From the NCBI GenBank assembly GCA_947458955.1, contig CANGZT010000001.1, positions 32,700-96,699 of the forward strand: a DNA stretch of 64,000 nucleotides, written 5' to 3'. Source of the DNA: Flavobacteriia bacterium (GTDB lineage: Bacteria; Bacteroidota; Bacteroidia; Flavobacteriales_D; Crocinitomicaceae). Below, in pieces: positions 46,978 to 63,625 of the stretch. The notes under the pieces are model-generated. The model ran no database searches, was not told the DNA's origin, and saw only the letters and a list, made by a program, of their open reading frames with translations. How positions within the stretch are numbered: position 1 is the stretch's first letter; every line of letters starts with the position of its first letter. Both the position numbers and the translations under genes were made by a program.

Positions 46978-47054
46978 GGCTTCGTAGCTCAACTGAATAG
47001 AGCACTACATTACGGCTGTAGAGGTTTAAGGTTTGAATCCTTACGAGGTCACCA
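46978..47054 (+). tRNA. tRNA-Arg (anticodon ACG), CCA encoded
   Basis: Hand-folded 77-nt cloverleaf. Acceptor GGCTTCG/CGAGGTC, D stem GCTC/GAGC, anticodon stem CTACA/TGTAG with loop TT-ACG-GC, T stem TAAGG/CCTTA, then discriminator A and CCA. Confidence 0.9.
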
Positions 47055-48612
47055 AAGCGGAGAACTGGTTATTTTTAACCAGTTCTTCTTTTTTTACCCC
47101 ATTCAAACTTCCTGATAATGTGTGAATTAAATCAAAAATCACATTCACTTCTGAGGTTTGAACTCGGTCATTTTTCTTGCAATACCACAATCCTCTTGGA
47201 AACAGTAGTTTTAGAAATTTTTGATTCTCGTAGAAACTCATAGACCTCCAGTGTTTACTGATGTTTTTACAGAAATCTAACGCTTTATTTATACAAAATT
47301 CAAGGTTTGAACTCGTGTTTCCATTACTTCCTAAAATTTCATTTAAAGCATCAATTTCTTCTATGTATTGCTTCGAAAATTTAGCGTAAATTTCATTCGA
47401 AATTTCTCCAATTGCATATCGTTCTTCAATTTTATCTAACTTGTTTTTTAACTGCGTTAGATTTGTTTTAATCGTTTTGTAATCTGATTCATCTTCTTTA
47501 GAAACTTCTGAAAAAACATACGACATCACATCTTTAATCACTTCAATCAATACTGGTTTTAATTCATATTGTTTCAATACCTTTTCAAAGTCTTCATGAA
47601 GCTGATTTGCATTTTTAGTACCAATACAGCCATTTGTTCTGCATTTGTAATAATACAAACGCTTTGCCTTTACTTCGAAGCCTGAGAGTGGTTTATTGCA
47701 CTCATTACAAAGAATAAATTGTCTTAAAGGCAGATTTTCATTTTCATTTTTATGCTCTTTAGGATGCATAGTTAGTTCAATTTGATTTAGCCTCAAAAAA
47801 TCTTTTTGAGAAATCAACGGTTTGTGTTTACCTTCATGTGCTTCACCAGGTAAGAGTTTGGTAGTTAAAATCCCACAATAATATGGGTTCTTAAAAACTT
47901 CGCCAAGTCTTCTTTCGTTGATGTTTACCCCTAAACGATTTAGTTTTCGAACAATCTCTGCATTTGAAAATTCATTATTTAAACGCCATTTAAATGCTTT
48001 TTGAAGATGTTTTCCTTCCTCTGTAATTTGAATATCCCAATCGACGGCTTTACTATGAACCTTTTTGTTTTCATATCCTATTGGAGGTGTCCAAAGCCAA
48101 TACCCTTTTCGAACCAAGTCTTTCATTCCAACTTTTGTTTTGTCTCTTCGTTGTTCATTGTCGAATTGACTAAACATATAAAACATACCTTGTTGAAATT
48201 TTCCTGCAGCAGTATCTGTTTCGGTATATTGGGTAACAGCCATAACATTGACTCCAGTTTTTTTCAATGATTCAGTTATATATGCAGCATTTGCACCTGT
48301 TCTTGAAAATCGATCGTAAGAATACACAATAATATAGCCTATACTTTTGTTTTTCTTTACATAAGTAAGCATCTTATTGAATTCTTTTCGATCATCTGTT
48401 TTCGCTGATTCGTGTGTCCCTCCAAAATATTCTACAACATTTAGACCTTTAGATATTGCAAACGATTCACAATACTTTTTTTGTGTTTCTAAACTCGTGT
48501 TATCTTCTTGATTTTTTGACGAGACTCGTGTATAAATTATGGCATTCTTTCTTGTCTCTAATGATTTATCCATTGGAGAAAATTTCTGGAATGCCTCTTG
48601 TAAATTTTTCAT
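47041..48612 (-). CDS. large serine recombinase (integrase of the downstream island)
   Basis: N-terminal resolvase domain with the catalytic Ser (AIIYTRVSSKNQ). Recombinase domain, zinc ribbon (CNECNKPL...YYYKCRTNGC) and coiled-coil tail. The last ~18 codons overlap the tRNA terminator and tRNA 3' end. Confidence 0.9.
   Translation of the reverse strand: MKNLQEAFQKFSPMDKSLETRKNAIIYTRVSSKNQEDNTSLETQKKYCESFAISKGLNVVEYFGGTHESAKTDDRKEFNKMLTYVKKNKSIGYIIVYSYDRFSRTGANAAYITESLKKTGVNVMAVTQYTETDTAAGKFQQGMFYMFSQFDNEQRRDKTKVGMKDLVRKGYWLWTPPIGYENKKVHSKAVDWDIQITEEGKHLQKAFKWRLNNEFSNAEIVRKLNRLGVNINERRLGEVFKNPYYCGILTTKLLPGEAHEGKHKPLISQKDFLRLNQIELTMHPKEHKNENENLPLRQFILCNECNKPLSGFEVKAKRLYYYKCRTNGCIGTKNANQLHEDFEKVLKQYELKPVLIEVIKDVMSYVFSEVSKEDESDYKTIKTNLTQLKNKLDKIEERYAIGEISNEIYAKFSKQYIEEIDALNEILGSNGNTSSNLEFCINKALDFCKNISKHWRSMSFYENQKFLKLLFPRGLWYCKKNDRVQTSEVNVIFDLIHTLSGSLNGVKKEELVKNNQFSALVTS
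47062..47095 (+). terminator. rho-independent terminator of tRNA-Arg
   Basis: GAACTGGTT-ATTTTT-AACCAGTTC hairpin (47062-47085) followed by TTCTTTTTTT. Confidence 0.7.
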
Positions 48613-50295: not shown

Positions 50296-50583
50296 TCAAT
50301 TAATAATGGTGAAACTTCCAAAACTTCCCCTTTTTTTGTTTTTTACAACAAATTTCACAAAATAATTATATCGATTTCCACCAACCAAAATATCAGTAAC
50401 TATAACAGCAGAAGATTCTGTTTTTAGCTTAACATGATTACAAAGGCGATAGACAATCTGACCAAAACAATGTTTATACAATTCATTTGTTTTTTTTTCT
50501 TTGACGACCTTCATATACAGCCTTGAAAAATAACTTTTTTTGAATCTTGTGTATTCTTTATTATTTTTAGAATAAGAGAGCAA
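50296..50583 (-). CDS. hypothetical small basic protein
   Basis: 95 aa from a TTG start (or 72 aa from ATG 50514), with no recognisable motif. Confidence 0.25.
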   Translation of the reverse strand: MLSYSKNNKEYTRFKKSYFSRLYMKVVKEKKTNELYKHCFGQIVYRLCNHVKLKTESSAVIVTDILVGGNRYNYFVKFVVKNKKRGSFGSFTIIN

Positions 50584-50819
50584 GAAATCGTTTCTTGTGA
50601 TTTTTTCTTCGTTTTTATATACTTGTTACTAATACTCGAAAGTATACCTAAAGTAAAAACAAAAAATTAGGATATGATTTCATAGAAGAATTTTTATTTG
50701 TAATTTAATTGATAATAAATGGATAACGACATCAACCCAATTCTTGATACCCTCTTACTAAATATTACTAACTAAGATAGAGAGTTGTTAGTTGTGTTTA
50801 ATTATTAAACAAAAAATTT

Positions 50820-51239
50820 ATGTTACAAGATTATGCAGTAATAATTCAAGGAGCAGCAATAAGAAGCTCAGAATTTACAGAAAATAGAGAGGCTTTGATT
50901 TTAAGACAAAGTCACATTAAGAATAATGGAGAATTAGTTTTTTCAACAGATGAAAACTATATAGAAATAAATGAACAAAATAAACGATATCTCATTCAGG
51001 AAGGTGATATCATAATGGCAACAACTGGTCCCTTAAACATAATTGGCAATATGTTTCAATATAAACTCCCAATGAAGGCAATTGTTGCTGGTCCTTTAAT
51101 CATAATAAGACCTAACGAAAATCCTGAAGGACTTTACAATCGGTTGAAAGATAAATATTATCATATTAAAACAATGGTATCCCCAATTGCAGGTATGACT
51201 AGAATTACTATTAGACAAATACGAGAATTGGAGTTATAA
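50820..51239 (+). CDS. orphan type I restriction S-subunit (HsdS) target-recognition-domain-like protein
   Basis: 139 aa. LIQEGDIIMATTG...AGPLIIIRPNENPEGLYNRLKDKYYHIKTMVSPIAGMTRITIRQIRELEL follows the single-TRD pattern of HsdS proteins. No hsdM or hsdR is in the window. Confidence 0.45.
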   Translation: MLQDYAVIIQGAAIRSSEFTENREALILRQSHIKNNGELVFSTDENYIEINEQNKRYLIQEGDIIMATTGPLNIIGNMFQYKLPMKAIVAGPLIIIRPNENPEGLYNRLKDKYYHIKTMVSPIAGMTRITIRQIRELEL

Positions 51240-51304
51240 AGAAATACCTATAATAATCAACAACAAACAAAATTTTGAAAAAGTTATAATTAATATTTTT
51301 TTAT

Positions 51305-51820
51305 ATGAAATTCAATAATATAGAACTGATCCTAAAAAAGTCATCTTATGAATTTGAGGTGAATGATCCTGTTTACCAAAAATCAGAATGTATATTTTGT
51401 AGTGAAAACTCAAGTTTTGGTGGGTACTCTTTTGCTTATGCTGGATTAATATATAAAATGTTAGTACCTGTAGTTCAATTTCAAAACGAAAAGCCTGTAT
51501 ATCCACTAAGAAAAATATTATCGTTAGATAATCTTAGTAAACCTATTCAAATATGTACACCTGTAATAAAAAACAACAGAGTAGAAGCTAAAACACTAAT
51601 GAACGAAATACTTGATGTAAGTAGAAAAAATAGGTTTTGTAAAATTGTTTTTACCCATTTCATCAAAATCAACCAATCCCATCATAAACTAAATATGCTG
51701 GGGATTCTAGATGCTTTAAAAGAAAATAATTTGAACTCAGAATTAAGCATTGTTCTTTCAATTGATGAAAATCATATTGAAGCATTTGAGGCAATTCTTA
51801 ATGAATATAACAACGCTTAA
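51305..51820 (+). CDS. hypothetical protein
   Basis: 171-aa ORF lying 65 nt after the HsdS-like gene. No motif recognised. Confidence 0.45.
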   Translation: MKFNNIELILKKSSYEFEVNDPVYQKSECIFCSENSSFGGYSFAYAGLIYKMLVPVVQFQNEKPVYPLRKILSLDNLSKPIQICTPVIKNNRVEAKTLMNEILDVSRKNRFCKIVFTHFIKINQSHHKLNMLGILDALKENNLNSELSIVLSIDENHIEAFEAILNEYNNA

Positions 51821-51934
51821 GTTTTTTTTAACTTTGATTAGATATATATGCGATTATAGTCTAAGCGATCATAAAGACTACGCGCGCGTTTATGAAATAT
51901 GTTACTAAATCAAAAATTATTTCAGATAAATAAA

Positions 51935-51977
51935 AGAGGCTGTCTCAAATATTAGAATAACAGCCTCTCAATTTTTA
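51935..51977 (-). terminator. hairpin terminator downstream of the STAND/263-aa gene pair
   Basis: AGAGGCTGT-16 nt-ACAGCCTCT. On the minus strand it is followed by TTTTATTTAT. Confidence 0.55.
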
Positions 51978-52072
51978 CCTAGGGGTGGGAATTTAAACCT
52001 TCATCGGATTACGCCAGATGACCTACGACCAGTTTTAAATTAGGAATCACTGGTTTCCTATGTATAAATAAA

Positions 52073-52864
52073 TTAGACCAACTCAAAATTTTGATTTTCA
52101 TCAAAGGGAAAAAAACCGCCATCTCGATCTATCAACATGATACTATTTGTGTACTCATTATCTAATAAAAATTGCTTTACTGTTTCTACAAAAAAGGGTA
52201 ATGCTCTATTATCATGATCATTATTTTCCATCAAAGTAAACCCCATACTTAATTTGTTTATACCATGAGTACCTAGCATTTTTTTCAATAGTTTAAAACT
52301 ATAATTTACCCTCTGTTGTACAAAGTTATTAATGTCGATCTCTCCATCATAGTTATTATTTATAAAGAGAAGATACGAGGTTTTATTCGTTTCATTTTCA
52401 ATTATTTTATATAAGTTATCAAATTGAATATTATCATTAAATCTAATATTATTAAAAATATTTTCATCACAAACTATCCAGTTATTTTGTGAGAAAGTAT
52501 AAGTTCTAAAATTATCGTTTTCAAAAAATAAATTTCGGCTTTGGTTCTTGAAGACTATAGTGGCATCAACAATAAAAAAGTACTTGCTTAAATTATCTTT
52601 TTTACGATGAATGTATTTAGAGGAATTGTCAACAAATGATATTCCTGAAGAATTTAAGACATTTTGTTTTCCTTCGATATCTAAATTACTGAATGCTTCA
52701 ATTTCATAATTATTAAATATATAAATTGCTAATGTTTCATGTATTCTTAGATTATCTAGATTTTCACGAATAACATTTAATCTATAACTAGGATTGTTAA
52801 TGGAATCTGGATTTAATGTAAACTCACGTAAATAACTATTTAATATATTATTATTAATTTCCAT
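52073..52864 (-). CDS. hypothetical 263-aa protein, putative partner/effector of the upstream STAND NTPase
   Basis: Clean ORF on the same strand, 96 nt downstream of the 1750-aa gene. Asn/Ile/Phe-rich with no recognisable catalytic motif. Confidence 0.6.
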   Translation of the reverse strand: MEINNNILNSYLREFTLNPDSINNPSYRLNVIRENLDNLRIHETLAIYIFNNYEIEAFSNLDIEGKQNVLNSSGISFVDNSSKYIHRKKDNLSKYFFIVDATIVFKNQSRNLFFENDNFRTYTFSQNNWIVCDENIFNNIRFNDNIQFDNLYKIIENETNKTSYLLFINNNYDGEIDINNFVQQRVNYSFKLLKKMLGTHGINKLSMGFTLMENNDHDNRALPFFVETVKQFLLDNEYTNSIMLIDRDGGFFPFDENQNFELV

Positions 52865-52960
52865 CTCTATATTTATTTTAATTACATAATCAAATCGAAG
52901 TTACAAAATAAATCAATTTTAAAAGCTAACTAGACACAACATTATCAGTAATTTATTATT

Positions 52961-55900
52961 CTAATTCAATCTATTATAAATATCAATCGCCCATTGTATT
53001 TCTAAGGATTTGTTTAAGCGATGGATTTGTTCTTCAGATATATCCGTTAAAAATATTCTCCAAATAGCATATTTTTTGAGTAGTTTTTCAATATTATCAC
53101 TATCATGAACGATGTGTTTAAGACAATCTTGAATAAAAACTTGGTCGACTTTGATTATATTTTTTTCCTCAATAAGTGTCTTTAAGAAAATTTCACGAAT
53201 TTCTTCGTGTTGGAATTGTGACATGATTTGTAAGAAAAATTGCGAGCTTGATTCCTTCATAAGTTGACTAGCAATAATTTCCCATACTTTTCGTCTTTCC
53301 CATAACTCAGAAATGGATAGACCGGCCTTTTCTGTTAAATGATATTTTTTTTGATTGAAAAGTTCCAAAGCAATTTGATGAAGCGTACTGTTTTTAGTAC
53401 TATCAAAATGAATATTTTGCACACATTTTAATGCTTCTTCAAACATACCTTGTTTTGTCATTTCAATGGATATTACCTCAAGTACGTAATTTTTATAGTT
53501 CCAATCAGAGATGTCATTTGAACATTCAATTGCTTTTGATGTATTGCCCTGTTTAGCCATTTTTAAGGAAATGATTTTCAAAAAATAATCTTTTTTTAAC
53601 TGATTATTTAAGTGTTTTGCAAAATACAATGCTTCTTCATACTTTCCATTTTCTACCTCCTCAAACAAAAAGTATGTATGTAAATCATTTTTTATTGTCA
53701 AATCCTCTATAGTTGCGGAAATTTGAAATGCTTCTTCAACCTTATTTTGTTTGAAAATCTCTCCAAAAAGTCTATTTATATTTATAGGAGAAAAATAATC
53801 ACAATAATCATTTAATTCTTTGGCAAATAAAAAGGCTTCTTTAATCATTGATAGGTTGATAATTTGTGGAAATATTTCTTCTATATCGGATAATTTAAAT
53901 ACTATTTCCTCTTCATCGATCCAACCTTTATTCTTTTGAATTCTAATAAACACCATCACGTAAGACAGAATGTCTTGCATCATTTTTTTAGCTTTTATTA
54001 TTTGACCTTGAGTTATGAGCTCAGATATAATGTCTTTCCATTTCTCAAAATAAAAATCAAAATTATAATTGTTAAAATCTTTTTGTATTAACATAAGAGC
54101 ATCATCTAATATAGAGGATGACTCTGCAAACTTACTCTGTAAAAATAAGGCATGGGAAATATCTTTTAAATCTAAACATCTCGAAAATGCATTAGCTAAC
54201 TCGCGCGCCTCATTCAGTATTGGATCAACATCTTCTATGAAACCTTGTTCTGTTAATTGATTTACCACAGAAAGCATGGTTCTACTAGAGTTTATCTTAC
54301 GTGCGTATTGTAATGTATATTTAAGTATTGTACGTGAATCAATAATCGTATGCGGAGATGATTCAAACATACCTAATTCTATTTCAAACTCTTTTATAAT
54401 ATGTCCCTGCATAGCCATTTTTGAAGAGATTTCTAATAATGTTCTTGTTTTACTATCTTCTAATTGAAAAAACTCTTCATTTCCGTCTTTCATAATTCCT
54501 ACTAATTGAATAGCAGCCTCAAACAAATTTTGTTTTAGTAATTCAAAACAGATTTTTTCTAAATCATTGTTATCTAGCTTATCACTAATTAAGTTAACAC
54601 ATTGTAAAGCTGCTTGTAATCTGTTTTGATTAACGAATTCCATTAAAATGTCTGCAAATGATGGGGGAAACCAATTATAATATTCGCATCTAAATTCACT
54701 AATTGTATCTAATACTGCTTCTAGATTTCCTTGTTTTGAAAATTCAATGCAAATTTTAGAAAGAACATTATTTGCATATTTTATTTCTTTTGATAATTTA
54801 AATGCTTCATTCAATTTCCCTTCATTGGCAAGTTTAATGGAGATATCGGTAAGTAAATTTTCTCTTTTTTCATTTATAGTATCTCTTACTGAAATAATCG
54901 ATTCATTCATCAAATCGATAATATCCTGCCATTTGGATTGAAACGATAATTCTGAACAAATCGCTTGAATTACTTCGCTCTTCCAATCATTATTCGAAAT
55001 GTTCAAACTCAATTCAAGCGCTTTCTGCATTGTTTGCTCTGCTTCGTCCAATAAGTTAACGATATATAATTCAGAGGAAATAGCAGCTAGTCTTATAGCC
55101 TTTTCACCATCATCTGTTGTATCGTTTGCTATAGCGAATGCTTCATCAATCTGACCATGTTTTACTAATTGCTTTACTAATTTCATGGTGATTATATAAT
55201 TAAAGTTAGTCCCTGTTCTAACCATAGTAATAGACTCAACCCATTCTCTAGCAATATCAAGCTTTCCTTTTTTTTCAAGTGCTGGAATAAAATCGTCGAA
55301 ACAATACCATGAAGTATTATCACCTCTATCATCAATTATACTAAAATTTAACACTTCAATCATATGAACCTTAGCCATTTCCAGTCTATCTTGTTCAATA
55401 AGGGCTAAAGTTTTTAATATTTCTACATCATATTGTTCATTATATCCTGTGTATTTCTCAAGTTCACTTATAGCATGATCTATTGAGATTAAAATTTCAG
55501 AATCTCTTTCTGCATTTACTTTATTTTCTTCTGTAGTCAAATGAAGTAATGATTCTATTTTATATACGATATCTCCGACACCTAAAATAAATTTATACAC
55601 ATCAAACCCTTTACCTAAATAAACCATTTGTGAATATATTTTTTTTAACAATTCTTTATATTCCTCTTTCCAGTAGGGAAAGGGTATTTCATTGTAAACT
55701 TCACCTAAAACATCTTTCAAAGACCAAAATCTATCGTAATCATCATCATCATAAACATCAAAATTATTTTCTTGATGTTTCTTAGAAAGTTCATTATCTA
55801 AGAGTTTATAAATAATATTCAATGCTTCATGTAAAAGAGAGATAGCTTCAGAAGTTCGCCCTTGTTTAGAAAATTCTGACGCAACAAATTCTAAAATATA

Positions 55901-58213
55901 ACTTTTACTATATAATTCATTAATTGTACTTGCAAAATCAAGTGCTTCATCTATTTTACCATGTTTTGCGTATTCAATACCTAATTCTCCAAATGCTATG
56001 TTTTTTTGCCATTCATCACTAATTCTTTTGGCACTAGCATAAGCTTCATTTAGTATGTTTAATTTTTCTATATCCACTTTTTGTGTATCAATATTTCTTA
56101 TGATAGTAATTAACGCATAAAAAATATCAAAGTCGTTGTTTAATGTTCGAGCAATTTCAAGAGCTTCTTCGATTCTTCCGTGACATCCTATTGAAGTAAA
56201 TATACCTGTTATAGAGTCTCTTTTTATTCCAAAATCATTGATTTTCTTTGCGATAGTAAGTCCTTCGTGAATAAACGCTAAAGCTTTTTCTTCCTTACCC
56301 TGTTTACCAAGTTCTGTGGATATGTCCGTCAGCGCGATACATATATCAGATTCTTTTTTTAAATTTCTAGCATGTTCAAGCGCTACATCAAGCTTGTTTT
56401 GTTTGATTAACTGCTTTATTACAAAGTTTTTACTGCAAATGTTTTCTAATACTTTTAGTTCACTATCCGAAAATGGAGCTTCTCTTTCTAGACATATCTC
56501 TATTTCTTGTTCATTGAAGTAACTGAAGTAACCTCTTTTTAAAACAATTTTATAATCTAAATCTAAAGCAACCCATTGTCCTGCCATTTTGAAAACTAGG
56601 TTTATCGGAAAAAAGTCACTCCAATTCAAAAGTTTATAATTCATTGGGAGATGCTCATCTAAATGATTCAGTAGTTTTTCAAGGGCTTCTTTTTGGAAAG
56701 GTTTATTTTTACTATCCAAAAGTGTTAATTCCATCAGGCACGGCATGTAGAGTTTAAACTTACGTTTCAACCCTTCCTCATCATTATTCGCAAAACTTTC
56801 TATTCGTTTCAGGGCTAAATCTATCTCATTGTCAGTAACTAAAGTCAACACGAATGGTGCTTCAGCTGTTTCTTCACTTTTTAATTCTACCAAATTAAGT
56901 GCTGATTCCAACTGTAAATGGTAATCATTTAGTTCTAAAGATTTTTCCAAACTTAGCTGGTAAAGATTTTTCGTTGCATCAAAATGCCTTAATACTTTCT
57001 TTTGTGTATCTGTATAATCCTTATTTTGAAAAAGTGAAAACAAGTCTGTTTGGTGCACTTTTTGACTGCTTACGCTTAGATGTCGTCCATAATTTTCTAA
57101 AGCGTATCGCTGTTCCCATTCACCCATTTGATTTTTCCAAGTGGAACAAAAATGAATAATCTGCGTATTTGCTTCATCTAAGTTAGCAGATTCCCATTTC
57201 ACCAAATATTCTCTTAAACTTTCATGGAATAATTGATATCCTATCACACCCTCATCAAGGATACTTTCGTAACAAAACTCTTTTATAAGAACGTTAAGAT
57301 GTTTTAGTGTTTCATCATCAAGATTATTAATCAGACCTAGATGTCTAAGAGTCAAAAAATCGTATGCTGCAGCCAATAAATACATACACCTTAAAAGATC
57401 TTCACCATGTATATTTTTAGCATATCGTTGCAGAATGGATTTGTAATAATCATTTAGTTCAATGGGTAATACATTACTTTCATTGACTTTAATGAATCCT
57501 TTATCAATTGAATCACACATTAATTTTAAATACAATGGATTTCCTTGAGAGGCGTTTACAACTTTTCGAAACCAACTGTCTTCAACTTTCAGATTATATC
57601 TTTGGGCTACTTCATCAAGTATTTCCTGAATGTTATTTTCTGTTAAACCACCTAACTCAATTTTTACAAAATTTTCTCTTGGCAAAGATGCCCAGAGTTC
57701 TTCAATTTGTGTATCGCTACCAGGTCGCGAACTAAAAATAAAAATTATATTATCAAATAGTTGACGAGGAAGGTAACTAACTAAATTGTTTTCTGTCCCT
57801 TCATCCAAACCATCGATGAATATCAATAGTTTTTTATCTTTATTTTGCTCGCTCCATATCCGCCACTTGGAAAACAATTGTTGTTGTATATTTAGAATAG
57901 TTTTACCCTCAGACTTAATTTCCCTGGCTTGAGGAAAAAGATCATCCGTTTTTTTAATTAAATCATTCAAAAAATATTCAATCTGAGCTTGGGCTGTTCC
58001 GCGACGAATCCATGACGCAATTATCTCGGTATTTATCAGCTCATTTTCCAATCGTATATCTTTAATAAATTCAGCGACAAGTGAAGATTTACCTATACCT
58101 GGATGACCAAAAATGCAGAAATATCCATTTTTGTTTTTTTTTACATAATCTAGAAATTGTGTACGTTCTATTTGTCTACCTATAAATCTATGTGAGTTTT
58201 GTTTTTGTGTCAT
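52961..58213 (-). CDS. NACHT-type STAND P-loop NTPase with >1000-aa C-terminal helical-repeat array
   Basis: Walker A GHPGIGKS (aa 36-43), Walker B LLIFIDGLDE (aa 129-138), FIFSSRP (aa 158-164) and GNPLYL (aa 224-229). At least 14 copies of an (I/L)xxE(L/F)xKQGxxxEA-type helical repeat follow. Confidence 0.85.
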   Translation of the reverse strand: MTQKQNSHRFIGRQIERTQFLDYVKKNKNGYFCIFGHPGIGKSSLVAEFIKDIRLENELINTEIIASWIRRGTAQAQIEYFLNDLIKKTDDLFPQAREIKSEGKTILNIQQQLFSKWRIWSEQNKDKKLLIFIDGLDEGTENNLVSYLPRQLFDNIIFIFSSRPGSDTQIEELWASLPRENFVKIELGGLTENNIQEILDEVAQRYNLKVEDSWFRKVVNASQGNPLYLKLMCDSIDKGFIKVNESNVLPIELNDYYKSILQRYAKNIHGEDLLRCMYLLAAAYDFLTLRHLGLINNLDDETLKHLNVLIKEFCYESILDEGVIGYQLFHESLREYLVKWESANLDEANTQIIHFCSTWKNQMGEWEQRYALENYGRHLSVSSQKVHQTDLFSLFQNKDYTDTQKKVLRHFDATKNLYQLSLEKSLELNDYHLQLESALNLVELKSEETAEAPFVLTLVTDNEIDLALKRIESFANNDEEGLKRKFKLYMPCLMELTLLDSKNKPFQKEALEKLLNHLDEHLPMNYKLLNWSDFFPINLVFKMAGQWVALDLDYKIVLKRGYFSYFNEQEIEICLEREAPFSDSELKVLENICSKNFVIKQLIKQNKLDVALEHARNLKKESDICIALTDISTELGKQGKEEKALAFIHEGLTIAKKINDFGIKRDSITGIFTSIGCHGRIEEALEIARTLNNDFDIFYALITIIRNIDTQKVDIEKLNILNEAYASAKRISDEWQKNIAFGELGIEYAKHGKIDEALDFASTINELYSKSYILEFVASEFSKQGRTSEAISLLHEALNIIYKLLDNELSKKHQENNFDVYDDDDYDRFWSLKDVLGEVYNEIPFPYWKEEYKELLKKIYSQMVYLGKGFDVYKFILGVGDIVYKIESLLHLTTEENKVNAERDSEILISIDHAISELEKYTGYNEQYDVEILKTLALIEQDRLEMAKVHMIEVLNFSIIDDRGDNTSWYCFDDFIPALEKKGKLDIAREWVESITMVRTGTNFNYIITMKLVKQLVKHGQIDEAFAIANDTTDDGEKAIRLAAISSELYIVNLLDEAEQTMQKALELSLNISNNDWKSEVIQAICSELSFQSKWQDIIDLMNESIISVRDTINEKRENLLTDISIKLANEGKLNEAFKLSKEIKYANNVLSKICIEFSKQGNLEAVLDTISEFRCEYYNWFPPSFADILMEFVNQNRLQAALQCVNLISDKLDNNDLEKICFELLKQNLFEAAIQLVGIMKDGNEEFFQLEDSKTRTLLEISSKMAMQGHIIKEFEIELGMFESSPHTIIDSRTILKYTLQYARKINSSRTMLSVVNQLTEQGFIEDVDPILNEARELANAFSRCLDLKDISHALFLQSKFAESSSILDDALMLIQKDFNNYNFDFYFEKWKDIISELITQGQIIKAKKMMQDILSYVMVFIRIQKNKGWIDEEEIVFKLSDIEEIFPQIINLSMIKEAFLFAKELNDYCDYFSPININRLFGEIFKQNKVEEAFQISATIEDLTIKNDLHTYFLFEEVENGKYEEALYFAKHLNNQLKKDYFLKIISLKMAKQGNTSKAIECSNDISDWNYKNYVLEVISIEMTKQGMFEEALKCVQNIHFDSTKNSTLHQIALELFNQKKYHLTEKAGLSISELWERRKVWEIIASQLMKESSSQFFLQIMSQFQHEEIREIFLKTLIEEKNIIKVDQVFIQDCLKHIVHDSDNIEKLLKKYAIWRIFLTDISEEQIHRLNKSLEIQWAIDIYNRLN

Positions 58214-58450
58214 AAAAATCTATTTTAAATAGTATATATTGTGTAACTTCCTTTTTTTTAGTGAGTTGTAACAAATATATAAAGTTTATAAATATACTTT
58301 AATTACGCTTTATTTTTTAATGCGTAACAAACTATTATTGAAAGATAAAAACTGTTTATTAATAAATCAAACGGATTTTAAAAAAGGTATGTATAAAATA
58401 TCAAAACAATTATTAGAAATCAATTTAATAAAACAAAGAAAAGTAATGCA

Positions 58451-59329
58451 GGAGCAAAGCCATTTGATGTTGTCATGATGTTCAAAATATTGATTTTACA
58501 ACGTTATTATGGTCTTGGAGACTCACAATTAGAGTATCAAATAATTGATAGAGCAAGTTTTAAAAAATTTCTTGGTTTGGAAAGCGGTTATAAAGTGCCA
58601 GATGAAAAAACAGTTTGGTCTTTTAGAGAACGAGTTACAAAAAGAAGGGTAGATTGAGAAAATATTCAAACAGTTCAATGCTTATCTTGAAGGTAAAGGT
58701 TTAATAATGAATAAAGGTAAAATGATTGATGCAAGTTTTACAATTGCCCCACGTCAACGTAATACCCATGATGAAAACAAAACAATAAAAGAAAATAAGG
58801 GGGTGAACTTTGGAATCATAAACCAAACAAAAAGAATCAAATAGATGTAGATGCTCGCTGGACGAAAAAAAATGGAGAAACCTTTTATGGACATAAAAAC
58901 CATACAAAAGTAGATGCAAAGTTCAAATTCATTGATAAATATAAGGTTACAGATGCTTCAGTACATAACTCTCAAGTATTAAATGATTTAATTGAAGAAA
59001 AAGACCAAGGACAAGATTTATATGCTGACAGTGCTTATCCTGGAGAAAAGCAAAAGAAAATCATATCATCATACAAAATGAATAATAAAATCCACGAAAA
59101 AGGATATAGGAACAAACCATTAACAGACCAACAAAAACAAAGTAATAACGAAAAGTCAAAAACCAGAGCTCGTGTTGAGCATGTGTTTGGATTTAATGAA
59201 CAAAGTATGAAAGGGTTGTTGGTGAGGTCTGTCGGTAAAGCAAGAGCAACAGGAATTATAGGACTTATAAATCTTACTTACAATATGTTAAGATATGAAC
59301 AAATCATAAGATTACCGCCTCAAAATTAA
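58451..59329 (+). pseudogene. decayed IS5-family DDE transposase
   Basis: Homology starts mid-protein (GAKPFDVVMMFKILILQRYYGL). A frame change and an in-frame TAG lie near 58635-58650, and a second frameshift sits at the G-run near 58797-58803. The DDE residues are still recognisable (MIDASF, LYADSAY, RARVEHVFG). Confidence 0.8.
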
Positions 59330-59516: not shown

Positions 59517-60101
59517 ATGATGAAACTAAATGAATATTTAAAAAATCATTTTCCTAATGATTTAGCAAGGTTAAAATTTCAAAAACCTAACTCTGTTATC
59601 CAAGATACCCTTGATTCTTTTAATATTGATCAACATACGATTTATTTTGGTGGTTTGAATTGGGAGAACTTAGACCAAGACATTGAACATATTGATAAAG
59701 AGTGTTACGAACATTTCTTTTTTTGTTTATTTACGATAACAATTATTGACTTAACTATATTTTCCCATTTTAAACATTATTACGATATTTTCAGAGGTAA
59801 AACAAGGTATCCTAAATTTGGGTGGAGTGGTTACGGTCCTCATTATGAAAACCCAAAAAAATTAATCGATATCCCTTTTCAAAAAGGACTAATTAGAATA
59901 GATGAAATTTACATAGATGAATATGTTCAATTATTTATTTCAGAAACTAATTCTTTTCTTGAATCAAATCTCAATCAAATTACAACTGTAGATTTTTTCA
60001 ATTCTCTACTAACAGACAGAGATTTTCAGTTAAATGAAAATGAAGAAAACACATATACACCACTCATAATAAAAAAATTAAAAGAAAAGTTCGAAAATTA
60101 G
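59517..60101 (+). CDS. hypothetical protein
   Basis: 194-aa ORF upstream of mcrB with no recognisable motif. Confidence 0.45.
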   Translation: MMKLNEYLKNHFPNDLARLKFQKPNSVIQDTLDSFNIDQHTIYFGGLNWENLDQDIEHIDKECYEHFFFCLFTITIIDLTIFSHFKHYYDIFRGKTRYPKFGWSGYGPHYENPKKLIDIPFQKGLIRIDEIYIDEYVQLFISETNSFLESNLNQITTVDFFNSLLTDRDFQLNENEENTYTPLIIKKLKEKFEN

Positions 60102-60240: not shown

Positions 60241-61614
60241 ATGCCAAACATTACACAATTTATACAAGTAGCTAATCAACAAACACCTGGCCAAAATACA
60301 ACACCGTCGGCTTTAGCATACAAAAGAGAAAATGAAATACCTTTTGAAAATCTAAATGTTAAAATTTCTTTTGGAATAGGTAGCGCAACCTATATTCCTT
60401 GGATAGCATATCTAGGCTATAATCAATCTGTACAAAGGGGGATTTACCCTGTTTTGCTTTTCTATAGAGAATTTAATTTATTAATCTTAGCCTTTGGTGT
60501 TTCTGAAAAATATGAGCCATTAATAAATTGGCAAGACCCAGAAAATTATTTAACAATAAGTAACTATTTTGAACAAAACCAACTTGGGAAACCAAGAAAA
60601 TATGGGAATTCTTTTATACACACCGTGTACGATACTAATCAACCAATTGATGAAACATTAATACAACAACAAATAATAGACTTAACAACATTTTATTATG
60701 CTTGTTTTAATCCTACACCTAATGATCAAGGAGAAATTGTTCCTGTTTATGACTTTGATACTGACCCAGACAAACCATTTATAACTCGAGAAGTCTTCAT
60801 TAAGACAACAAACCTATTAAAACGAAAAAGAAATATTATTCTTCAAGGTCCTCCAGGTGTTGGTAAAACATTTATAGCACGTAAAATTGCTTATCAGATT
60901 ATGGGACAATCTGCTGATGCATTTATAGAAATGATACAATTTCACCAATCATACAGCTATGAAGATTTTATTCAGGGATTAAGACCAACAGTTGATGGGT
61001 TCAAAATAATTCCAGGTGTATTCTTCAGATTTTGTCAAAAAGCGATTGCTCATCCAGACAAAAAGTTCTTCTTCATTATTGACGAGATAAATCGAGGCAA
61101 TTTAAGCAAAATATTTGGCGAACTTTTAATGTTAATTGAAGCAGACAAAAGAGGAGGAAAATACTCAATTAACCTTACCTATTCCGAATTTGATGATGAT
61201 AAATTTTTCGTCCCTGACAATCTCTTTATTATTGGAACAATGAATACTGCTGACAGGTCACTAGCAATCGTTGATTATGCCTTAAGAAGGCGCTTTGCTT
61301 TTGTGTCTCTACAGCCTGACTACGGTGATAATTTCAGAAACTTCCTTATAGGAAATCAACTTTCACAAATAATGGTAAACCATATCTGTTCTTCCGTTAC
61401 CGAAGTGAATAATATTATCAATGAGGATATTAATTTAGGAAGTGGGTTTCAAATCGGTCATAGTTATTTTTGTAATAGCCCAAATACGATTACTGAAGAA
61501 ATCTGGTGGCGAGAAATTCTAGAGTTTGAAATAAAACCATTACTATCAGAAATTTGGTTTGATGATGCAAATAAAGTATCGGATATGATGCAAATATTAG
61601 CCTATCCAGATTAA
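60241..61614 (+). CDS. mcrB: McrB-family AAA+ GTPase restriction subunit with MrcB_N/DUF3578-like N-terminal DNA-reader domain
   Basis: Walker A LQGPPGVGKTF, FFIIDEINRGNLSKIFGELLMLIE and GTMNTADRS...ALRRRF. The N-terminus ISFGIGSATYIPWIAYL...GIYPVLLFY resembles the MrcB N-terminal domain. Confidence 0.85.
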   Translation: MPNITQFIQVANQQTPGQNTTPSALAYKRENEIPFENLNVKISFGIGSATYIPWIAYLGYNQSVQRGIYPVLLFYREFNLLILAFGVSEKYEPLINWQDPENYLTISNYFEQNQLGKPRKYGNSFIHTVYDTNQPIDETLIQQQIIDLTTFYYACFNPTPNDQGEIVPVYDFDTDPDKPFITREVFIKTTNLLKRKRNIILQGPPGVGKTFIARKIAYQIMGQSADAFIEMIQFHQSYSYEDFIQGLRPTVDGFKIIPGVFFRFCQKAIAHPDKKFFFIIDEINRGNLSKIFGELLMLIEADKRGGKYSINLTYSEFDDDKFFVPDNLFIIGTMNTADRSLAIVDYALRRRFAFVSLQPDYGDNFRNFLIGNQLSQIMVNHICSSVTEVNNIINEDINLGSGFQIGHSYFCNSPNTITEEIWWREILEFEIKPLLSEIWFDDANKVSDMMQILAYPD

Positions 61615-61616
61615 CG

Positions 61617-62663
61617 ATGAGAATTCCCATTCTAAATATCTATCACTTATTATGCTATGCATGGAAAACACTTGATGAAAAGGAACGAATTAGGGTTGAA
61701 ATTGATGATACTACGGAATTAGTTGACCTTTTTGCAAAGGTTTTAATAAGAGCAACAAAAGTACTTATTAAAAGAGGAATTGATAAAAGTTACATTGAAC
61801 ATAATGAAGAAATTGCAGGAGTAAAAGGAAAACTATTAATAAGTGAAACTGTAAAGAGTAATATTTTATTTAAACAGCGAACTATATGCAATTTTGATGA
61901 TTTTTCACCCAATATTTTAAGCAATCAGATACTATTAACAACTATTTATAACTTAATTAGAACACAAGGAATTGATAAAGAATTAAAAGATGAATTAGAT
62001 TCACTTCATAAAATGTTTATAGGGATTGATCTAATTGAAATTAAGAGTTCCCTATTTAAGCAAATTCGAATTAATAGAAACAATCGGTTCTATGGTTTTG
62101 TGATGAATGTTTGCCAATTAGTATTTGAAAGTACATTACCATCCGAGGAAAAGGGAAAATATTTGTTCTCAGATTTTACTAGAGATGAAAAGAAAATGCC
62201 TATACTTTTCGAAACATTTGTCAGAAATTTCTATAAAATTGAGCAACATATATTCTCAAGCGTCAAAAGAGATAATATTAAGTGGTATTTCGAAATTTCG
62301 GACACATTAAGTGACCAATACTTACCAAAAATGCAAACAGATATTACTTTAGAAAATTCAAATAATAAAATAATAATAGACACAAAATATTCTCAAAAAA
62401 CAATGACTATCAACTACAATATGGAAAAAATAAAATCAAGTCATTTGTATCAAATGTTCAGCTACTTATTAAATCAAGAAAATGAAACTGAAAAGACAAG
62501 AACAACTACAGGAATTTTACTTTATCCAACAATAGAACAAGACTATGATTTGAACTTTAGGTATAATGAACATGACATTAAAATCAAAACAATTAATTTG
62601 AATACTGAATGGCAAAATATACATAATAGACTATTGTCAATTATAGGTATCAATCAAACTTAA
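61617..62663 (+). CDS. mcrC: McrC-family restriction endonuclease subunit
   Basis: Starts 3 nt after mcrB. Its C-terminal PD-(D/E)xK-like core is MQTDITLE...IIIDTKYSQK. Confidence 0.8.
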   Translation: MRIPILNIYHLLCYAWKTLDEKERIRVEIDDTTELVDLFAKVLIRATKVLIKRGIDKSYIEHNEEIAGVKGKLLISETVKSNILFKQRTICNFDDFSPNILSNQILLTTIYNLIRTQGIDKELKDELDSLHKMFIGIDLIEIKSSLFKQIRINRNNRFYGFVMNVCQLVFESTLPSEEKGKYLFSDFTRDEKKMPILFETFVRNFYKIEQHIFSSVKRDNIKWYFEISDTLSDQYLPKMQTDITLENSNNKIIIDTKYSQKTMTINYNMEKIKSSHLYQMFSYLLNQENETEKTRTTTGILLYPTIEQDYDLNFRYNEHDIKIKTINLNTEWQNIHNRLLSIIGINQT

Positions 62664-62740: not shown

Positions 62741-63625
62741 ATGTTCTTAAAATACAAACATCCCAAAATTGATGATCATTCTTTATATTATTTAAAGACT
62801 GATAATTATCAAACAACGCCTGTAGACTTAACTTCTTTTATTCTTGATAGAATTGATAAAAACAAAGATATTAGTGAGTTTATAAAGAATTTTGAAACAT
62901 TAGGTATAGAGAATGATATACCAAGTTATTTTCAAAATTACATGAGTATTGCAGATGTTGAGTTAACCTCAAGAGTTTTAGCGCCAATTGCCAATCAGAT
63001 TGAAACTTATATTAAAGGTTGTAAGAATTTTGATTTAGAAAGTTTTAATAATGCATTAATCGCATCTATTAATGAACTAAAAGAAGATGAAATAGTTGAA
63101 GCTTTATTTGCAAACCGATTAATTTGGAACTATTTAAATGATAAAAATAAGTTAGAAAGTAAATTAAAGTCTTTCAAATATATAGATTCAATTAATCCTA
63201 AGGAGATAGATAAATTAAAATCTATTGCAATTCACTTTTTTTTGAAAACGAGTGATTTTAATCTGCAAGAGTTGAATTCTTTCAAGTTAAATACAAAACC
63301 TAATGTAGTATTTTATCATAACGATGATAATAAAATTTATCTTGAAATTGATCATGAATCAAAAACCGTTTGGTTTGATAAAGAAACATCAGATTGGATA
63401 AATAGAACAAATACGGTCACATTTGATGGATCATGTGACTTTGATACCCTTATACATTTATACTTTTTATTATCTGAGACAGTTTTAAGTGGTAGTAATA
63501 AAGAATATAATATGAAAGTAAGGTCTTTCAAACCAATTTGGTTTAGAGCAATGGGTTACACTGTAAAACCATCTGGCGAATATGCAAAAACCTATTGGAA
63601 AATAATTGAACAACAAATCAATTAA
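62741..63625 (+). CDS. hypothetical protein
   Basis: 294-aa ORF lying 77 nt after mcrC with no recognisable motif. Confidence 0.5.
   Translation: MFLKYKHPKIDDHSLYYLKTDNYQTTPVDLTSFILDRIDKNKDISEFIKNFETLGIENDIPSYFQNYMSIADVELTSRVLAPIANQIETYIKGCKNFDLESFNNALIASINELKEDEIVEALFANRLIWNYLNDKNKLESKLKSFKYIDSINPKEIDKLKSIAIHFFLKTSDFNLQELNSFKLNTKPNVVFYHNDDNKIYLEIDHESKTVWFDKETSDWINRTNTVTFDGSCDFDTLIHLYFLLSETVLSGSNKEYNMKVRSFKPIWFRAMGYTVKPSGEYAKTYWKIIEQQIN

Follow-up and report, generated by a model that had tools for sequence, protein, structure and literature searches.

A NACHT-type STAND NTPase gene without a fused effector and its neighbour, a predicted macrodomain-like gene, in an island of a Flavobacteriia bacterium: partners or separate cassettes?

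Antiviral STAND proteins, which resemble NOD-like receptors (NLRs), are understood as three-part proteins made up of an effector, an NTPase, and a sensor. In the stretch of DNA analysed here (the window; 64,000 nt of contig CANGZT010000001.1, assembly GCA_947458955.1, Flavobacteriia bacterium), a gene for a 1750-aa NACHT-type STAND NTPase lacks an N-terminal effector domain and is followed, after a 96-nt gap, by a co-oriented gene for a 263-aa protein. As this architecture belongs to a stable clade, the question is raised of how such a protein produces an output, with a trans partner, a helper paralogue, and sequestration of the ligand as candidate answers. The preliminary description of the locus had proposed a two-gene system, in which the 263-aa protein is an effector or partner supplied in trans. 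In the present analysis the locus is read, with the balance of probability about level, as modular cargo of a recombination-prone defence island, in which the two genes are separately exchangeable cassettes and not an obligate two-gene system.

Linkage and genealogy of the two genes

A homologue of the 263-aa gene lies 90-96 nt behind every STAND gene that is at least 55 % identical to that of the window and has a sequenced downstream flank. There are seven such loci: the window, L003/L004, L009, L010, L011, the J_KEX contig, and the partial locus L005 (related loci are labelled L, and proteins P). Conversely, all of the close homologues of the 263-aa protein (56-94 % identity) for which the upstream flank is on the contig are located behind a STAND gene of this subclade or its remnant. 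Conserved co-occurrence, which had been expected of a two-gene system, is therefore seen within the subclade and is absent beyond it, on the STAND side in L012-L014 and on the side of the 263-aa gene in L013, L018, L019, and L020; in L001, L002, and L008 the STAND gene has been deleted. Because co-occurrence is confined to one shallow subclade, the expectation is only half borne out.

In the three deletion loci, the STAND gene is reduced to its last ~90 codons (tblastn, aa 1657-1746, 83-87 % identity) and the 263-aa gene is intact. One blastn breakpoint, at ~53219 of the window, is common to all three, with a MORN-repeat gene beyond it; dS (substitutions per synonymous site) in this flanking gene is 0.12. 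The last 90 STAND codons are strongly conserved, mostly at 84-98 % DNA identity, deletion loci included. Alignment of seven loci, some of them without STAND, also shows a conserved T-rich element ending in TTTTG, ~35-40 nt before the ATG of the 263-aa gene. Because this element is kept in loci without STAND, it suggests that the 263-aa gene has its own promoter in the spacer.

Comparisons of dS differ between the genes. Between the window and L010, dS is 0.13 for STAND, 0.09 for the 171-aa gene that is convergent to the 263-aa gene, and 0.22 for the 263-aa gene, with a ratio of nonsynonymous to synonymous rates (dN/dS) of 0.95 in the last. Between the window and L003, which has no 171-aa gene, dS is 0.63 for STAND and 0.30 for the 263-aa gene. 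These values indicate that the genealogies of the two genes are discordant, and point to independent recombination of each. Across the whole of the 263-aa gene, dN/dS is 0.5-0.95. The hypervariable cassette at its 5′ end is sharply bounded: in a sliding comparison with L001/L010, DNA identity is 62-70 % inside it and mostly 84-99 % to either side. The N-terminal helical domain encoded here exists in at least three allele types.

More distant relatives of the 263-aa gene are found with other partners. In L019 and L018, a gene of this family is located 12 nt behind a YAcAr-type SLOG gene, with no STAND partner; in L013, it overlaps the end of the YAcAr gene and is 2.5 kb from the STAND gene of that locus; in L020, the family is present as tandem paralogues, without STAND. 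A SIR2 gene with a 141-aa partner is nearby in L019, L014, L012, and L013. An association of YAcAr/SIR2 with Macro has already been described in comparative genomics (PMC7824862), and the matching context of the 263-aa relatives therefore gives independent support for the macro fold predicted for this protein (see below). The L020 paralogues are of 285 and 262 aa (P0145, the most distant family member, 23 % identity) and adjoin genes for Band_7, helix-turn-helix (HTH), and N6/N4-methyltransferase proteins; an ADP-ribosylglycohydrolase gene is 9 kb away (L020 836-2515 and 10876-11693).

The deeper effector-less STAND genes (45-58 % identity; L012-L014) likewise have neighbours of their own, including an unrelated 232-aa gene, SIR2, and a canonical Macro gene. 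The 232-aa gene is within 1.2 kb of the STAND gene in all three loci, downstream in two and upstream in one. It encodes a protein of 231-233 aa with no detectable family (L013 11379-12080, L014 11123-11821, L012 3390-4085), and no domain common to it and the 263-aa protein was found. It was considered as a remote homologue of the 263-aa protein, or as sharing an adaptor with it, and rejected since no similarity was found. The 171-aa neighbours in L013 and L014 were likewise rejected as homologues of the 171-aa gene of the window, being alike only in size.

Architecture of the two proteins

The coordinates and lengths of the open reading frames, the gap between them, and all five NTPase motifs are as first described. 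In STAND these are FIGRQ (aa 10-14), Walker A GHPGIGKS (aa 36-43, nt 58085-58108), Walker B LLIFIDGLDE (aa 129-138; DGLDE, nt 57800-57829), FIFSSRP (aa 158-164), and GNPLYL (aa 224-229). Walker A, Walker B, the sensor-1 Arg, and the GxP motif of NACHT-clade STAND NTPases are all represented. Nine residues precede FIGRQ, and the stop-to-stop frame has just two extra codons upstream of the ATG; because the frame is closed there, no N-terminal domain is possible, and the initial view that there is no room for an N-terminal effector is upheld. A NOD profile made from 120 homologues covers aa 9-436. The Pfam family NPHP3_N, a NACHT-like P-loop family, matches at 32.1 bits (cutoff 24.8), while NACHT is just under its cutoff (25.1 against 26.7), as are nSTAND1 and AAA_16, slightly; the NACHT/nSTAND1/AAA_16 region is aa 3-232.

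The more than 1000 aa of helical repeats reported after the NTPase are borne out by ~1,100 aa of TPR/PPR-like sequence. TPR_30 passes the Pfam cutoff, and TPR_2 and PPR match too; the motif xG(K/R/Q)xxEA(L/F/I) recurs in at least 15 copies between aa 636 and 1595, at a spacing of 30-42 aa; and the sequence matches in PDB are PPR-repeat proteins only (aa 585-691 and 1456-1602). Neither repeats nor Pfam families are assigned to the last ~150 aa. Searches of Pfam, NCBIfam, PADLOC, and PDB sequences found no HTH or enzymatic domain anywhere in STAND. Against PADLOC-DB v2, its matches are limited to a generic model, STAND_TPR (E 4.9e-7), and to mad8 (E 0.009), with none to an Avs or bNACHT model in this library, which is without the newer Avs7-21 families (PMC13581612). 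Its placement outside the typed Avs/bNACHT subtypes is thus in keeping with this check; its fused relatives, described below, likewise give weak matches to generic STAND_TPR only.

Seven pairwise comparisons of the NOD were made within the STAND subclade; dN/dS is 0.17-0.31 in six and 0.58 in the seventh, the near-identical pair L003/L009 (dS 0.04). The repeats evolve faster than the NOD, at 0.26-0.70 and mostly 0.35-0.57. The STAND NTPase is intact, selectively maintained, and under purifying selection. A protein that is 100 % identical to it (P0013) was found on lake-metagenome contigs; no homologues of STAND or of the 263-aa protein were found in phage genomes, plasmids, or IMG/VR contigs.

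The 120 best homologues of STAND were compared, with a neighbour-joining tree of the NOD, midpoint-rooted without an outgroup. In 104 of these, Walker A is at aa ~216-310, mostly 248-276, compared with aa 36 in the window, and is preceded by a conserved N-terminal domain of ~245 aa (for example WP_377982046.1, 'NACHT domain-containing protein', Aquirufa; P0065). An RNxxAH motif is present in 102 of these 104 N-domains. RNxxAH corresponds to the HEPN-type Rx4-6H signature, and the N-domain looks like a candidate HEPN-type RNase effector; no Pfam HEPN match and no PDB sequence match were found for it. Across P0026-P0132 this unannotated domain has highly conserved segments, FRKVHRMIDLFESIIK, GLRTPSLGTWQLF, RNGYAHGATP, and FFNDLKNDKVGLLNYPL.

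The 13 proteins nearest to the window STAND (45-100 % identity) have a short N-terminus and all start alike. They form a single clade whose sister group is the remaining 107, made up of the 104 fused proteins and three further 'short' entries, which are 5′-truncated gene calls nesting among the fused proteins. NOD identity between the effector-less and fused clades is 42-48 %. The shared start extends down to 45 % identity and into contexts free of any insertion sequence (IS). As the 13 proteins start alike and are monophyletic, the effector-less architecture is an old, stable trait and not the product of the adjacent IS. An IS artefact or a wrong start was rejected as the cause of the short N-terminus, as the frames of all 13 are closed upstream. 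A hidden Markov model of the 104 N-domains found no split copy either in the window or in the fetched loci. The 263-aa protein was rejected as a split-off N-domain, since neither phmmer nor this model found a match in it.

The window STAND is like Avs/AVAST (Gao et al., 2020, 2022; expanded families, PMC13581612) in that a STAND NTPase is followed by a long TPR-like repeat sensor, in being encoded by one large gene that adjoins restriction genes in a defence island, and in having a sensor that evolves faster than the NTPase. Unlike Avs, it has no fused N-terminal effector, its NOD starts from residue ~10, and it matches no typed Avs model. It also has the motifs GxxGxGKS, hhhhDGhDE, SSRP, and GxP and a TPR-class 'antigen-receptor-type' C-terminus, features of bNACHT proteins (Kibby et al., bioRxiv 10.1101/2022.07.19.500537); the N-terminal enzymatic or adaptor domain of bNACHT proteins is missing. 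The RNxxAH sister clade has a homologous NOD, TPR/PPR-like repeats, and the same freshwater Bacteroidota habitats; the window clade differs from it in having no N-domain. Kaur, Burroughs, Iyer & Aravind (2021) reportedly described STAND systems in which the effector is encoded in trans and linked to the NTPase by effector-associated domains (EADs). The CARD-NLR gasdermin operons combine an NLR-like NTPase with a neighbour-encoded output protein (bioRxiv 10.1101/2023.05.28.542683). Unlike these EAD and CARD systems, in which matching EAD, Death-like, or CARD adaptors are present on both proteins, the window STAND has no N-terminal adaptor, and no adaptor was found that the 263-aa protein shares with the 232-aa neighbour or with the fused N-domain of the relatives.

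The 263-aa protein (17 % Asn, 9.5 % Ile) has no match in Pfam, PADLOC, NCBIfam, or PHROG. It had been taken for an orphan without recognisable features; instead, it belongs to a small family and has a macrodomain-like predicted fold. A word-based search gave just 12 homologues, with 56-94 % identity, and an alignment-based word search added only one further distant member. By exhaustive profile search, the family makes up 16 clusters among 1.84 billion cluster representatives, with lengths of 219-295 aa, fragments and two longer marginal matches aside. The first AlphaFold2 (AF2) model, from 13 close sequences, was poor (predicted local distance difference test score, pLDDT, 59). With 17 sequences, including the distant members, pLDDT is 84 and the predicted template-modelling (TM) score is 0.84, and the model has an N-terminal helical domain (aa 1-72) and an alpha/beta domain (aa 75-250). 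Invariant or near-invariant residues of the core are D100-A-T-I-x-F, R110, W129, Y152, Y164, G198, M207, and D246.

Foldseek searches of PDB with this model rank macrodomains first (E ~1e-4, probability 1.0, target-normalised TM up to 0.53). Among the top matches are the Methanobrevibacter and Staphylococcus aureus SirTM-linked macrodomains, macroH2A, MacroD2, and PARP9. M17 aminopeptidases also appear, through their macro-like N-domain. In BFVD, a protein-ADP-ribose hydrolase (E 2e-3) and phage macro proteins rank first. Because the query-normalised TM to macrodomains is only 0.35-0.40, support for the macro fold is moderate, and since sequence methods fail to confirm the fold, the protein is named, with moderate confidence, divergent macrodomain-like. 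The strand D-A-T-I-[IV]-F-x-N resembles D-A-I-V-N-A-A-N. On the model, the family would be a new, very rare, and divergent branch of macro-like proteins. Judging from the predicted fold and the genomic context, the 263-aa protein is most likely a module that binds or processes an ADP-ribose derivative, and not a toxin.

The nearest known proteins are macrodomain proteins of NAD+/ADP-ribose conflict systems, namely the SirTM-linked macrodomains (SauMacro, 5kiv), DarG, and the YAcAr/SIR2-Macro fusions (PMC7824862). The predicted fold of aa ~75-250 is best matched by macrodomains, with the SauMacro class among the top matches, and deeper family members are located behind YAcAr SLOG genes, with SIR2 nearby; the window differs from YAcAr/SIR2-Macro in having neither a SIR2 nor a YAcAr gene. 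In contrast to the macrodomains of NAD+/ADP-ribose systems, the 263-aa protein has no Pfam Macro match and no Gly-rich phosphate-binding loops, and has the hypervariable helical domain in addition.

Separate cassettes or a cooperating pair

With separately exchangeable cassettes, the solenoid would bind a phage-derived ligand and the NOD would oligomerise, by analogy with Avs and bNACHT. The older genomic partner of the 263-aa family would be a YAcAr-type SLOG gene, with SIR2 nearby, and the macro-like gene would have come to sit behind STAND in one shallow subclade, where it is probably transcribed from its own promoter, recombines independently of STAND, and persists where STAND is deleted. 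Any coupling between the two would be facultative and accessory, through recruitment, regulation, or clean-up of a signal. The chance that the two genes act independently is put at about one half. That they act together is appreciably less likely, that they form an obligate pair is improbable, and for the 263-aa protein a role as trans effector is possible. Several points weigh against separate cassettes. Strict adjacency to STAND would equally be expected of a real operonic partnership. A change of partner, from YAcAr to STAND, and discordant genealogies are likewise typical of the modular effectors of true defence systems. The deletion of STAND may be recent, and retention of the 263-aa gene is therefore only moderate evidence of independence. 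The macro fold comes from structure prediction and gains no support from sequence profiles: none of the 17 family members matches Pfam Macro at E <= 10, hhalign against a canonical Macro protein and the PDB profile search are negative, and the canonical Gly-rich loops (NAAN...GGG, G[IV][YF]G) are absent from the family alignment. For both genes, a function in defence is putative.

A true two-gene system, in which STAND senses a phage protein, oligomerises, and recruits or activates the 263-aa protein through its helical domain, is somewhat unlikely. The output would come from the macro-like domain, which might process a metabolite derived from ADP-ribose, or remove or read ADP-ribosylation. 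The lack of a fused effector and the adjacency, on which the proposal had rested, both stand, and in each of the seven subclade loci that carry STAND the adjacency is strict and the spacing conserved. The genes are co-oriented, with no terminator in the spacer and one common terminator. Since selection maintains the stable effector-less architecture, there must be an output of some kind; a sister subclade keeps a small gene of its own (232 aa, within 1.2 kb in 3/3 loci); and the fast evolution of the 263-aa gene and its hypervariable N-domain would fit an arms-race interface. The shallow linkage and the independent recombination count the other way. The 263-aa gene is intact where STAND is deleted, its deeper relatives pair with YAcAr or with each other and not with STAND genes, and the two genealogies are independent. 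Furthermore, the nine residues before the NOD leave no EAD-type adaptor for homotypic recruitment, the 263-aa and 232-aa proteins have no common domain, and macrodomains are not known to be killing effectors. A broader version is more doubtful still: the whole NACHT-TPR clade without a fused effector would signal via swappable trans proteins, with the macro-like 263-aa protein docking here by its hypervariable helical domain onto activated STAND, so linking phage sensing to ADP-ribose chemistry, while the same module serves YAcAr/SLOG-SIR2 elsewhere.

Two other explanations, both of low probability, make no use of the 263-aa protein. STAND may be a sensor-only NLR that depends on a helper, forming hetero-oligomers with a full-length RNxxAH paralogue elsewhere in the genome, as with NAIP/NLRC4 and the sensor/helper NLR pairs of plants. 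A large fused clade with a very similar NOD is the sister group of the effector-less proteins, and contigs with more than one family member are possible, P0027 and P0043 both having a longest contig of 64,239 nt. However, neither the window nor the fetched loci contain a second STAND or an N-domain homologue, and no bacterial precedent is known for such a helper-dependent, hetero-oligomerising NLR. Alternatively, a cryptic output may be located within the STAND chain itself, in the C-terminal non-repeat region, or the protein may act by pure sequestration of the ligand; no partner would then be needed. MalT-like STAND proteins begin with the NTPase at residue ~1 and have the output domain at the C-terminus, and here the last ~150 aa are unassigned, with the last 90 codons highly conserved even in the deletion loci. 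Against this are the failure of the four database searches to find an HTH or enzymatic domain, and the C-terminus itself, which appears to be helical as in the remainder of the solenoid.

Should the two genes cooperate, the pair would be the first case of a bacterial NLR with a macrodomain as its output; should they not, the locus would be a clear example of island mosaicism mimicking an operon. The 263-aa gene defines a family of predicted macrodomain-like proteins, very rare and not recognised before, which alternates between SLOG/SIR2 and NLR contexts and carries the hypervariable N-terminal cassette. The family offers a compact entry into ADP-ribose-linked immunity in freshwater Bacteroidota.

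The island and its cassettes

The features of the locus and its surroundings are listed in Table 1. The tRNA-linked island described at the outset, with its HsdS-like gene, IS remnant, and McrBC, is recovered with Pfam, PADLOC, ARAGORN, and Rfam. Likewise, no hairpin is present between the two genes (spacer z = +0.9) and one strong terminator hairpin follows both (z = -5.0).

Table 1. Positions in the window of the two genes, their parts, and neighbouring features.
Feature	Position	Strand	Basis
1750-aa NACHT-type STAND NTPase gene, without N-terminal effector domain	52961..58213	-	ORF, translation, Pfam
NOD module, aa 1 to ~440 (P-loop NTPase, lid/winged-helix region)	56894..58213	-	Motifs, profile
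TPR/PPR-like helical repeat solenoid, aa ~585-1750, presumed sensor	52964..56461	-	Pfam, PDB, motif
STAND gene 3′ end, surviving as remnant in L001, L002, L008	52961..53219	-	tblastn, blastn
Unstructured 96-nt spacer, STAND to 263-aa gene	52865..52960	-	Fold z = +0.9
263-aa protein gene (N-terminal helical domain, predicted divergent macrodomain-like alpha/beta domain)	52073..52864	-	AF2, Foldseek
Hypervariable 5′ cassette of 263-aa gene, codons 1 to ~85, helical domain	52610..52864	-	Sliding DNA identity
Predicted macrodomain-like alpha/beta core, aa ~75-250	52115..52642	-	Model secondary structure
Intrinsic-terminator-like hairpin and U-tract, between convergent 263-aa and 171-aa genes	~51934..51979	-	Fold z = -4.99
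139-aa HsdS-TRD-like gene and 171-aa gene, convergent to 263-aa gene	50820..51820	+	PADLOC, neighbour copies
Degenerate IS, DUF772 and DDE_Tnp_1 fragments, several broken frames	58320..59329	+	Pfam; gene fragments called in identical contig L015
McrB (457 aa) and McrC (348 aa) restriction genes	60241..62663	+	Pfam AAA_5, MrcB_N, McrBC
tRNA-Arg (ACG)	46978-47054	+	ARAGORN, Rfam
Large serine recombinase gene	47041-48612	-	Pfam Resolvase, Recombinase, Zn_ribbon_recom

The terminator-like hairpin has a folding energy of -20.2 kcal/mol, none of 200 shuffled sequences folds equally well, and UUUUAUUUAU comes next. A generic terminator scan did not report it, as the loop exceeds 8 nt. The 3′ untranslated region of the 263-aa gene (51978-52072) is locally GC-richer and is conserved, mostly at 94-99 % in L001/L008 and at 80-94 % in L010; its fold is not significant (z = +0.6). 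A tRNA-like att remnant was considered here and rejected, having no Rfam or ARAGORN support.

The 139-aa gene has a PADLOC Specificity_I match (2e-10), and no family is detectable for the 171-aa protein. Copies of these two genes that are 92-100 % identical adjoin the 263-aa gene in L001, L002, L006, L010, and the J_KEX contig. The STAND 3′ end, the 263-aa gene, the terminator, and the convergent 171-aa and 139-aa HsdS-TRD-like genes form a block of 2.7 kb (window ~50506-53219), which moves as a unit, at ~91 % identity, between differing genomic surroundings (L001 and L002, and partly L008 and L010).

On the other side, the degenerate IS stops ~106 nt upstream of the STAND start codon, and in this genome the STAND promoter may have been displaced or supplied by the IS. 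McrBC is flanked by unannotated 194-aa and 294-aa genes (59517-60101 and 62741-63625), outside which are large Fib_succ_major/DUF4116 repeat proteins (L015 1-4585). These recur at the island edges of L001, L011, L013, and L014 and seem to frame the variable region of the island. The 3′ end of the serine recombinase gene overlaps the last 14 nt of tRNA-Arg(ACG), and this overlap is likely an integration junction, marking the island border. No SIR2, YAcAr, or second STAND gene is present in the 64-kb window.

In related islands the order of the cassettes is shuffled, involving SIR2 with its 141-aa partner, HsdS-like genes, YAcAr with a macro-like gene, the 232-aa gene, and STAND. The pool in Flavobacteriia-like islands includes overlapping 141-aa and SIR2 (252 aa) genes, HsdS-like genes of 205-240 aa, a 155-aa gene, and YAcAr-SLOG with a macro-like gene (L019 96-4325, L014 4732-5873, L013 1-3500, L012 14370-16166), and may represent an NAD+/ADP-ribose-centred multi-gene system. 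The sole GTDB genome with a relative of the 263-aa protein is a Flavobacteriia metagenome-assembled genome, and the region is found in identical form on lake-metagenome contigs of up to 129.6 kb.

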